Assembly (NCBI RefSeq): GCF_000027125.1
Contig: NC_017626.1
Strand: one strand, 5' to 3'
Length of the DNA: 64,000 nt
DNA from: Escherichia coli 042
GTDB taxonomy: Bacteria; Pseudomonadota; Gammaproteobacteria; Enterobacterales; Enterobacteriaceae
The notes under the pieces are model-generated. The model was given only the letters and a program-made list of their open reading frames with translations. It made no database searches and was not told the origin of the DNA. The position numbers were made by a program, and so were the translations under genes. Positions 25,798-27,127 of this stretch are shown piece after piece; position 1 is the stretch's first letter, and every line of letters begins with the position of its first letter.

Positions 25798-27045
25798 TTG
25801 AGGTGTACTGGCAATAGCGGACACTACCATTTGTTCTTTTTTTAAGCAGCCATCTGATGATATTTTTCCCTGAAGGCTGCCGGGGAGATATTCCCCAGAC
25901 GAGAGTGACGACGCTGACGATTGTAGAAAATCTCAATGTATTCCCGTATTACTGAGATGGCTTCATCCCGGTTATTAAAACGATAGTGGCTCAGGCTCTC
26001 ATTTTTCAGCGTTCCCCAGAAGCTTTCCATCGGAGCGTTGTCGTAACAGTTACCTTTACGCGACATTGATGTTTTCAGACCAAACTGCTCCTGTATGACC
26101 CGGTAATCGTATGCGCAGTACTGTGAACCTCGATCAGAGTGGTGGATTAGCCCGGCAGGTGGGCGCTGGCTCCTGAGCGCCATAAACAGGGCTTTACCTG
26201 TCAGCTCTTTTGTCATGCGCTCTCCCATGGCGTAGCCGACAATTTCGCACGTATAAACATCTTTGATGCCAGCGAGGTACAACCATCCCTCCTGTGTGGC
26301 AACATACGTCAGGTCCGCCACCCAGACCTGATTTGGTGCTGTAGGAGCGAACGTCTGGTTCAGCAGATTTGGCGCAACTGGCAGATTGTGGTTCGAGTTC
26401 GTAGTCGCTCTGAACTTGCGTTTCTGCTTACAGCGTAGCCTTAGCTCCTTACGAAGACGTGCCAGTCGGTCACGACCAACGATGATGCCATTCTCTGCCA
26501 GCTCCGTCTGGAGCCGCCGGGTTCCATATGTTTCGCGAGTGCGGATATGTGCCACCTTAATCTCCAGTTTTAGCCGCTCATCACTTTGTTTTCTGTCTGA
26601 GGGTTCATGCTGTACCCAGTTGTAATAACCGCTCCTGGATACACCAAATACCTGACACATCGCTTCAATGGGAAATTGTTGTCGCCATTGTTCGATTAAC
26701 GCGTATTTTTCAGCGACTCCTGTGCAATTTAATATATCTCGCTCAAGGCGAGCTTCATTTAACGCCTTACGCAGTTGCAGAATTTCAGATTCCAGTTCAG
26801 CCACCGTGCGGGAACCAGGAGTACCGAGCCCTTTTCTGGCGGCGGTAACCCATTGTCCTAAAGTGCCTTCAGGAAGAGATAATCGGGAAGCACCTTCACT
26901 GATCGAAAGTTGATTTTCAAGAACCGTTCTGACAGCTTCGGCTTTGAACTCTTTAGAGTAACGTTGGGTTTTTCTGCTCATTATTAGCTCCTTCTGATGC
27001 CATTCTATTTCAGGAAGGAGTGTCCGTTAAACTCAGGCTACCTCA
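25798..27045 (-). mobile_element. IS3-family insertion sequence (~1248 bp)
   Basis: Imperfect terminal inverted repeats tgaggtgtactggcaatagcggacact (25798) and revcomp of 27019-27045 (tgaggtagcctgagtttaacggacact); single 379-aa transposase ORF. Confidence 0.7.
25842..26981 (-). CDS. IS3-family transposase (fused OrfAB-like, 379 aa)
   Basis: N-terminal HTH YSKEFKAEAVRTV, leucine-zipper-like segment, DDE/rve core (…HHSDRGSQY…NAPMESFWGTLKNE…). Confidence 0.85.
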   Translation of the reverse strand: MSRKTQRYSKEFKAEAVRTVLENQLSISEGASRLSLPEGTLGQWVTAARKGLGTPGSRTVAELESEILQLRKALNEARLERDILNCTGVAEKYALIEQWRQQFPIEAMCQVFGVSRSGYYNWVQHEPSDRKQSDERLKLEIKVAHIRTRETYGTRRLQTELAENGIIVGRDRLARLRKELRLRCKQKRKFRATTNSNHNLPVAPNLLNQTFAPTAPNQVWVADLTYVATQEGWLYLAGIKDVYTCEIVGYAMGERMTKELTGKALFMALRSQRPPAGLIHHSDRGSQYCAYDYRVIQEQFGLKTSMSRKGNCYDNAPMESFWGTLKNESLSHYRFNNRDEAISVIREYIEIFYNRQRRHSRLGNISPAAFREKYHQMAA

Positions 27046-27127
27046 TTGGTTCCCACTACTTATTTGGTGGACACCACTTTGTCTAATTCGTCAGATTCTG
27101 ACCAGACGGTTCAGGCTGTACGCTTAC
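27046..27127. repeat. 82-bp IS66-family left-end remnant (identical to 47392-47473)
   Basis: ttggttcccactacttatttggtggacacc...ggctgtacgcttac includes the terminal GTAAGCG (reverse complement) of the IS66-family element at 45185-47473. Confidence 0.75.

Follow-up and report, generated by a model that had tools for sequence, protein, structure and literature searches.

Structure of the locus

The DNA analysed here, called the window below, is a stretch of 64,000 nucleotides of Escherichia coli 042 (contig NC_017626.1). Within it, the gene of a BCCT-family transporter (23691-25694, minus strand) and the 104 bp upstream of it (up to 25798) abut the IRR end of a 1247-bp copy of IS600, an insertion sequence of the IS3 family (25799-27045, minus strand, IRR end at 25799 and IRL end at 27045). 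The IRL end is in turn joined to a segment of 82 bp (27046-27127), and the outer border of this segment, an IS66-type terminus, meets the 34-bp 3′ flank (starting at 27128) of lpxM/msbB2 (27162-28106, minus strand), the last gene of the shf-capU-virK-msbB2 cluster.

The arrangement BCCT-IS600-82 bp-lpxM is shared by 470 out of 5426 complete genomes of E. coli (∼9%), with 99.8-99.9% identity and always on the chromosome. The junction is not specific to one strain but represents an old and fixed relic. The fec operon, Ag43 and CP4-type genes that surround it place the locus in the known leuX pathogenicity island, as in CE10 and ED1a. The islands PAI-CE10-leuX and PAI-ED1a-leuX, and KpLE2 in K-12, resemble the window in their MsbB2, VirK, Fec and Ag43 content and in their IS600 junctions, and the chromosomal shf locus located beside fec in EAEC 042 matches the surroundings of the window junction. 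The descriptions of the leuX island compared here mention neither the IS600/82-bp junction nor the IS30 scars reported below. The region upstream of the BCCT gene gave no example of an empty site: IS600 lies beside this gene in 10 out of 10 contexts of the exact BCCT protein. When the region 25600-27300 was scanned for promoters and terminators, sites were no more numerous than in shuffled sequences, and the only promoter-like site on the minus strand was that of IS600 itself, in its IRL.

IS600 belongs to the IS3 family, was first described in Shigella sonnei, and is 1264 bp long (ISfinder). The copy of the window ends with TGAGGTG...ACCTCA (TGAGGTGTACTGG... at 25799 and, as reverse complement, TGAGGTAGCCTGAG... 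at 27045). Its transposase matches the IS3-family equivalog NF033516 of NCBIfam over profile positions 1-369 of 369, with a score of 400.4 bits for a cutoff of 160, and contains the Pfam domains HTH_Tnp_1, HTH_21 and rve. Nucleotide identity is 98-99.9% to the copies that RefSeq names ‘IS3-like element IS600 family transposase’, and the IS600 name given here rests on these annotated copies as a reference. Termini of the TG...CA type, imperfect terminal inverted repeats and a transposase of the HTH and DDE (rve) type are thus shared with IS600, whereas three traits set the window copy apart: it is known at one locus, it lacks 17 bp across the frameshift window, and it is not flanked by the usual 3-bp target duplication, the 3 bp on its two sides being tgt and ttg. 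The lack of this duplication means that at least one further rearrangement, deletion or recombination, has affected an IS600 end.

The 82-bp repeat is the end of an IS66-family element

The segment 27046-27127 is repeated at 47392-47473, with 82 of 82 bases matching and an extension of 0 bp past either edge. No third copy was found within the 64-kb window. An exact repeat of this length in 64 kb cannot be attributed to chance. The second copy is the IRL end of an ISEc8-type element of the IS66 family, 2289 bp long (45185-47473, minus strand), for which profile matches identify the IS66 proteins TnpA (NF047595), TnpB (NF033819) and TnpC (NF033517), and which has GTAAGCGTACAGC... at both termini (45185 and 47473). 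The 82 bp represent its left, tnpA-proximal end, and stop 10 bp short of the tnpA ATG at 47381. This element is defective and chimeric: its tnpC has a 153-bp gap, the 219 bp on its IRR side are only 87% identical to ISEc8, and its flanks, GAACAAAA and CACTATTT, do not form an 8-bp duplication.

The copy next to IS600 is a remnant on the minus strand, corresponding to the IRL end (element positions 1-82) of an IS66-family element. Its inner edge falls exactly on the IRL terminus of IS600. Its outer terminus, 27127, has the GTAAGCG... sequence of IS66-type ends (the reverse complement of 27103-27127 is GTAAGCGTACAGCCTGAACCGTCTG, the first 13 bases of which agree with the IRR at 45185). In a virulence plasmid of Shigella dysenteriae, an ISEc22-type element is inserted into an IS600 copy with a clean 8-bp target duplication, AGATGGCC, and its 82-bp end is 100% identical to the remnant. 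As the same end is found in this independent insertion, bordered by an 8-bp duplication, position 27127 is an exact IS terminus. ISEc8-type and ISEc22-type elements are ∼89% alike outside this end, and the 82 bp are 100% common to both, so that the remnant is assignable to the ISEc8/ISEc22 group only. It has the IRL end and the GTAAGCG terminus of both types, and differs from these relatives, which make 8-bp duplications, in that it keeps 82 of about 2442 bp and encodes no tnpA, tnpB or tnpC. No annotation is attached to these 82 bp in RefSeq records.

The initial annotation, made from the letters alone, had proposed that the 82 bp were the left end of an IS66-family element, identical to the end of the element at 47392-47473, that the rest of this IS was missing with an IS3-family element in its place, and that an insertion or a deletion of IS on IS had therefore occurred next to the shf-capU-virK-msbB2 locus. 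The identity stops on both sides and is not part of a longer, non-IS match. The nature of the end is borne out by the GTAAGCG terminus, by the TnpA, TnpB and TnpC genes of the second copy and by the ISEc22 insertion with its duplication. The edges of the segment are an IS600 IRL and an IS66-family terminus, as expected from IS-on-IS events, the tgt and ttg flanks showing a further rearrangement, and lpxM/msbB2 directly adjoins the remnant. The IS3-family assignment was also right and can be narrowed to IS600, but the start that had been given for the element, 25798, is one base early.

Origin of the junction

All the components of the locus are known elements, with a known behaviour, in a known island. 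Taken as a whole, it is very probably a fossil junction, produced by successive insertion-sequence events and without a function of its own. The stop codon of lpxM/msbB2 was once followed, 34 bp further on, by the left end of an element of the IS66 family (ISEc8/ISEc22 group). IS600 is joined to this element by its IRL terminus, at a point between positions 82 and 83 of the IS66-type sequence, and nothing else of the IS66-type element remains. That IS600 joined the IS66-type element, the remainder of which was then lost, follows from the two edges of the 82 bp, one being the IS600 IRL and the other a true IS66-family terminus. Two routes may have led there. IS600 could have entered the IS66-type element, a deletion then running from the IRR end up to the region upstream of the BCCT gene. 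Alternatively, IS600 may have stood beside the BCCT gene when its IRL end fused with the interior of the IS66-type element, the intervening DNA being lost. In both cases, the event could have been driven by the transposase or have resulted from recombination of one IS600 copy with another.

Searches of E. coli genomes and plasmids did not turn up the reciprocal junction, in which the IS66-type element from its position 83 onward would meet the IS600 IRR (form GACACTTTG/TGAGGTGTACTGG). Seeming matches consisted either of IS66-type and IS600 sequences 630-710 bp apart, or of ISEc22 inserted into IS600. Direct insertion of an IS66-type element would leave AAACAACT as the flank beside its other end, and no uninterrupted IS66-type element was found at the site, in a non-duplicated context, in the genomes or plasmids searched. 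The first steps are therefore reconstructed from a single junction.

Both ends of IS600 can gain new, end-precise junctions in other genomes. In the L010 assembly, it is the hchA region, and not the BCCT gene, that the IRR end meets. In K-12 and CP054241, the IRL end is joined to an IS911/ISEc52-like element at a point corresponding to 31654/31655 of the window, and the 82 bp are absent, as is the msbB2-virK-capU-shf cluster in its entirety. K-12 KpLE2 thus differs from the other islands by the loss of the msbB2 cluster through this IS600-IRL/IS911 deletion, and the KpLE2/fec region of K-12 appears as a reduced derivative of the same structure.

Plasmids of ETEC strains offer another view of the lpxM flank, which begins there at the same base as in the window, an ISSpu2-like element of the IS630 family ending 2-4 bp away. 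One of them, pETEC_74, has a 70-bp IS66-type IRL remnant, 279 bp inside the IS630-family element and in the same orientation as that of the window. The bases 27128-27134 were considered as a 7-bp remnant of an IS630-family element; this was refuted, as independent copies end 2-4 bp before the shared flank.

It might be, then, that the 82 bp reached the lpxM flank secondarily. This could have occurred by an adjacent deletion starting from an arrangement like that of pETEC_74, given that an IS630-family element of the ETEC plasmids ends 2 bp from the window's junction and that an IS66-type remnant of the same orientation is found 279 bp further in. It could also have occurred by homologous recombination through IS600 and IS911, a segment made of the 82 bp, the msbB2 cluster and the 5′ part of IS911 entering a K-12-like island; in K-12 and CP054241, which have no such cluster, the IS600 IRL does meet IS911 at 31655. 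However, IS911 is unbroken across 31654/31655 in the window, which makes a deletion in K-12 and CP054241 the simpler event. Moreover, no IS630-type sequence is left in the window, and the pETEC_74 remnant differs from that of the window by one base and is cut elsewhere (70 bp versus 82 bp). We consider such a secondary arrival unlikely, if still worth weighing.

IS30 alleles and the 17-bp gap in IS600

When aligned to the L003 copy, the window IS600 lacks 17 bp (AATACGCGGTTGCTTTT on the plus strand) between 26727 and 26728. The canonical sequence at this place, ...TTAAAAAAAGCAACCGCGTATTTTGCA..., was reconstructed from IS600 copies interrupted by IS30. Indeed, in plasmids and in K-12, IS30 (1221 bp, with a duplication of GT) sits in IS600 exactly at the site of the gap, and the occupied allele reads ...GTGCAAAATACGCGGT-IS30-GTTGCTTTTTTTAAT.... 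A complete precursor, BCCT-IS600::IS30-82 bp-lpxM, is present at the BCCT/lpxM locus of G4/9. Its layout, in window coordinates, is BCCT-IS600(25799-26727)-AATACGCGGT-IS30 (1221 bp)-GTTGCTTTT-IS600(26728-27045)-82 bp-lpxM. The length of IS600 in the IS30-interrupted precursor is 929+17+318 = 1264 bp.

Four alleles were found at the IS30 site of the BCCT/lpxM locus. IS30 is present in G4/9, PigCaeca_2 and EC26, and in a truncated form in L024, with no deletion implied. CP054241 has a footprint, AATCTACAGTTGCTTTT, which keeps the 5 terminal nt of IS30 (CTACA) beside the GT target duplication, and which implies a deletion of 1223 bp between two AAT triplets. A 3-bp deletion is found in IAI39, CE10, AR_0013 and others, for an implied deletion of 1226 bp with 1 nt of microhomology. 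Finally, the window and most genomes have the 17-bp deletion, corresponding to an implied deletion of 1240 bp, i. e. 19 bp more than the length of IS30, with no microhomology. Using the canonical sequence as query, no unscarred IS600 was found at this locus in 5426 genomes, the best match being the 3-bp-deletion allele (615/618 bp). Together with the junctions, these four alleles can be used as lineage markers for the leuX island.

Precise excision of IS30 does not occur (PMC9333248). Loss of ISApl1, a member of the IS30 family, produces deletions close to the length of the IS, often with microhomologies of 2-4 bp, and some of them intrude into the IS; loss of IS30 has likewise been observed, and is transposase dependent (bioRxiv 10.1101/2023.06.07.543989). 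The situation at the BCCT/lpxM locus is similar to these cases of imprecise loss (ISApl1 from Tn6330, the IS30 products of Szabo et al., stimulation by IEE): a single site has an occupied and several scarred alleles, the deletions of 1223, 1226 and 1240 bp are to be compared with an IS of 1221 bp, and one allele has a 3-bp microhomology and bases from the IS end. The 17-bp scar of the window differs, in that it exceeds the described scars and has no microhomology. With this difference in mind, comparison of the alleles suggests that the 17-bp gap is probably a scar of IS30 loss. For ISApl1, imprecise loss has been described around mcr-1; the allele series would then illustrate it for IS30 itself, and in natural populations.

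The IS30-occupied form would accordingly be the ancestral one at the locus, and IS30 would have been lost imprecisely at least three times, leaving the 5-nt footprint of its end in CP054241, the 3-bp deletion in IAI39 and CE10, and the 17-bp deletion in the window. Such losses would match the known transposase-dependent loss of IS30-family elements. K-12 keeps IS30 at this site and yet has the same derived IRL/31655 junction as CP054241, from which it follows that IS30 was present before that deletion. IS600 interrupted by IS30 at the identical site is also found on plasmids, so that IS30 may have entered IS600 before or after its arrival at this locus.

The absence of microhomology, and a size above that of typical scars in the IS30 family, could also be taken to mean that the 17-bp gap is a spontaneous small deletion, IS30 having later entered a hot-spot site in a few lineages. 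Such a hot spot would fit with the presence of IS30 at the identical site in unrelated IS600 copies of plasmids and, in K-12, at the analogous position within IS911. This alternative has, however, to account for lesions of three kinds (17 bp, 3 bp, and the 5-nt substitution) within the same few bases of one locus, one of which retains the 5 terminal nt of IS30 adjoining the GT target duplication. It has also to account for the lack of an unscarred allele at the locus in 5426 genomes, and for K-12 and CP054241, which share a derived deletion junction and differ as IS30 present versus footprint. We find it improbable, and retain the loss of IS30 as the source of the gap.

Fusion of orfA and orfB

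In the list of open reading frames, orfA and orfB of the window IS600 appear as a single ORF of 379 aa (25842-26981, minus strand). They are in frame because the 17-bp gap takes out the A-rich slippery site at which the two overlapping frames are otherwise connected by programmed -1 frameshifting: on the sense strand, the canonical IS600 reads ...GATATATTAAAAAAAGCAACCGCGTATTTTGCA... at this site, and the fused version of the window ...DILNCTGVAEKY.... The two-frame organisation is kept in the IS30-interrupted precursor and in other IS600 copies. Devoid of its frameshift site, the window copy is a mutated member of the IS3 family and of IS600, rather than a non-member.

Engineered OrfAB fusion transposases exist for IS911, IS3 and IS150. 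As in these constructs, the frameshift site is gone and a single protein of the OrfAB type is encoded, but the fusion arose here from an accidental 17-bp deletion, 6 linker residues were lost as well, and the copy has not spread. The exact 379-aa protein is very common in public assemblies, and its gene adjoins lpxM in all 33 contigs examined. As it was seen nowhere else in these contigs, we regard the copy as an immobile relic rather than as an active fused transposase. In an unbiased sample, no copy of the fused ORF was disrupted, and its variants showed 3 synonymous and 4 non-synonymous changes. These 7 changes give no evidence of selection on the ORF, and are too few to separate constraint from recency.

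One may imagine that the 379-aa protein is a frameshift-independent transposase of the OrfAB type, perhaps produced without the OrfA regulator, which would serve other IS600 copies in trans or be selected, and would, with the 82-bp repeat, turn this part of the leuX island into a hot spot where the fec-msbB2 segment is amplified or lost. The 379-aa ORF is intact in hundreds of E. coli genomes, immediately downstream of the IS66-type end; we hold this functional reading to be very improbable, and keep that of a fossil junction.

The 379-aa ORF, which belongs to a scarred IS600, bears the label of an intact ‘IS3 family transposase’ in RefSeq. The relevance of the locus is mostly one of annotation, with an IS66-type end of 82 bp left unlabelled and a scarred IS600 named as an intact transposase.

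Tandem amplification of the segment between the 82-bp repeats

The two 82-bp copies are in direct orientation and delimit a unit of 20.3 kb (27128-47473), composed of lpxM-virK-capU-shf-IS911-like element-fec operon-...-ISEc8-type copy. A comparison with related islands carrying a complete IS66-family element at the position of the remnant had been suggested in the initial annotation. A synthetic ‘ancestor’ was used as query for this purpose, in which the left part of the ISEc8-type element was joined in silico to the lpxM flank. The chromosomes of two clinical isolates, AHB5 and CREC-629, gave full-length matches (100%) to it, each in a single piece and with 99.4-99.7% identity. In both of them, the fec operon is present on both sides of the ISEc8-lpxM junction, and a 50-kb view of AHB5 reads BCCT-IS600-82 bp-lpxM...fec...ISEc8-lpxM...fec...ISEc8-lpxM, with at least 3 copies of the unit. 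From their organisation, these two assemblies appear to be tandem amplifications of 27128-47473, generated via recombination between the 82-bp repeats, and the suggested comparison yielded a false positive.

That AHB5 and CREC-629 represent instead the ancestral state, with a complete IS66-type element beside lpxM from which the window would derive by IS600 insertion and deletion, is hardly credible in spite of the full-length, single-piece match of the query to both chromosomes, since the first unit of the AHB5 array retains the IS600/82-bp junction and the IS66-type copy of both genomes is the defective 2289-bp one from 45185-47473. A complete IS66-type element beside lpxM was rejected as the ancestor, the full matches being amplifications and the plasmid matches an IS630-type insertion.

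The reciprocal product expected from a deletion between the 82-bp repeats (IS600-82 bp-47474...) was found in 0 of 5426 genomes. Judging from the two amplified assemblies, an IS remnant as tiny as the 82-bp repeat can seed the amplification of a 20-kb segment that carries iron-uptake and lipid A genes.

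Tandem amplification of the 20.3-kb unit, and state of the ISEc8-type copy

A 20.3-kb unit carrying lpxM, virK, capU, shf and fec (27128-47473) was found as tandem copies in AHB5 (NZ_OZ546922.1), a blood isolate with at least three of them, and in CREC-629 (NZ_CP024815.1). It is amplified via the 82-bp direct repeats (27046-27127 and 47392-47473). The reciprocal deletion between these repeats was seen in none of 5426 genomes.

The ISEc8-type IS66-family copy that ends in the second repeat (45185-47473) is seemingly intact, but is in fact defective and chimeric. It measures 2289 bp, versus 2442 bp in pETEC_74, and its tnpC has a 153-bp gap within the DDE domain; the product is 461 aa long, with a Pfam DDE_Tnp_IS66 match covering only 1-222 of 284. 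Identity to ISEc8 drops to just 87% over the IRR-side 219 bp, against 99.3% elsewhere in the copy. The copy lacks an 8-bp target duplication.

Directly outside its left end lies a 106-bp sequence (47474-47579) whose start coincides exactly with the IS terminus, and whose second copy (19040-19145, 99% identity), 28 kb away, adjoins a truncated acuI-like gene. A 3.9-kb segment (14994-18863), missing in CP054241, includes a further IS66-family element, which shares about 65% identity with the ISEc8-type copy and ends in ...CGCTTAC at 18843. In L031, one of the sequences compared, this ...CGCTTAC end is directly joined to window position 21485.

Related arrangements in other replicons

The ETEC plasmids p510016_80, pTW10690_129.5k and pETEC_74 carry an ISSpu2-like IS630-family element whose insertion site, a TA, is 2 bp away from the position at which the lpxM flank meets the IS66-type end in the window. 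In pETEC_74, a 70-bp IS66-type left-end remnant is present 279 bp inside the IS630-family element, and in p510016_80 the latter is joined to IS600::IS30.

Between shf and fecE, from 31204 onward, the window has an IS911/ISEc52-like IS3-family element. In AHB5 and CREC-629 (compared sequences L005/L006, 17911-20180) it contains a group II intron (ltrA), at the equivalent of 31963/31964. In KpLE2 of a K-12 derivative (NZ_CP062244.1; 8943-10900 of compared sequence L035), IS30D lies between a 5′ part of IS911 and a fragment of IS600 orfA; this fragment is joined to IS911 at the equivalent of 31655. This arrangement makes the K-12 region upstream of fecE a reduced derivative of the island, from which the msbB2 cluster (msbB2-virK-capU-shf) was lost.

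The reverse nesting, an ISEc22-type IS66 element inside IS600 with an 8-bp duplication (AGATGGCC), was found on an S. dysenteriae plasmid (NZ_CP026833.1; L020, 1875-4576). In JAJAQZ010000022.1 (GCA_021649555.1), an IS600 with fused orfA and orfB retains the lpxM-side junction; its IRR end meets the hchA-hprSR-hiuH region, not the BCCT transporter gene, which indicates a further IS600-associated rearrangement. Finally, VE-T9 (NZ_AP027963.1; L033, 94-4026) carries at the IS600 site an IS30 that points the other way and is in turn interrupted by an ISCro1-type IS66 element.
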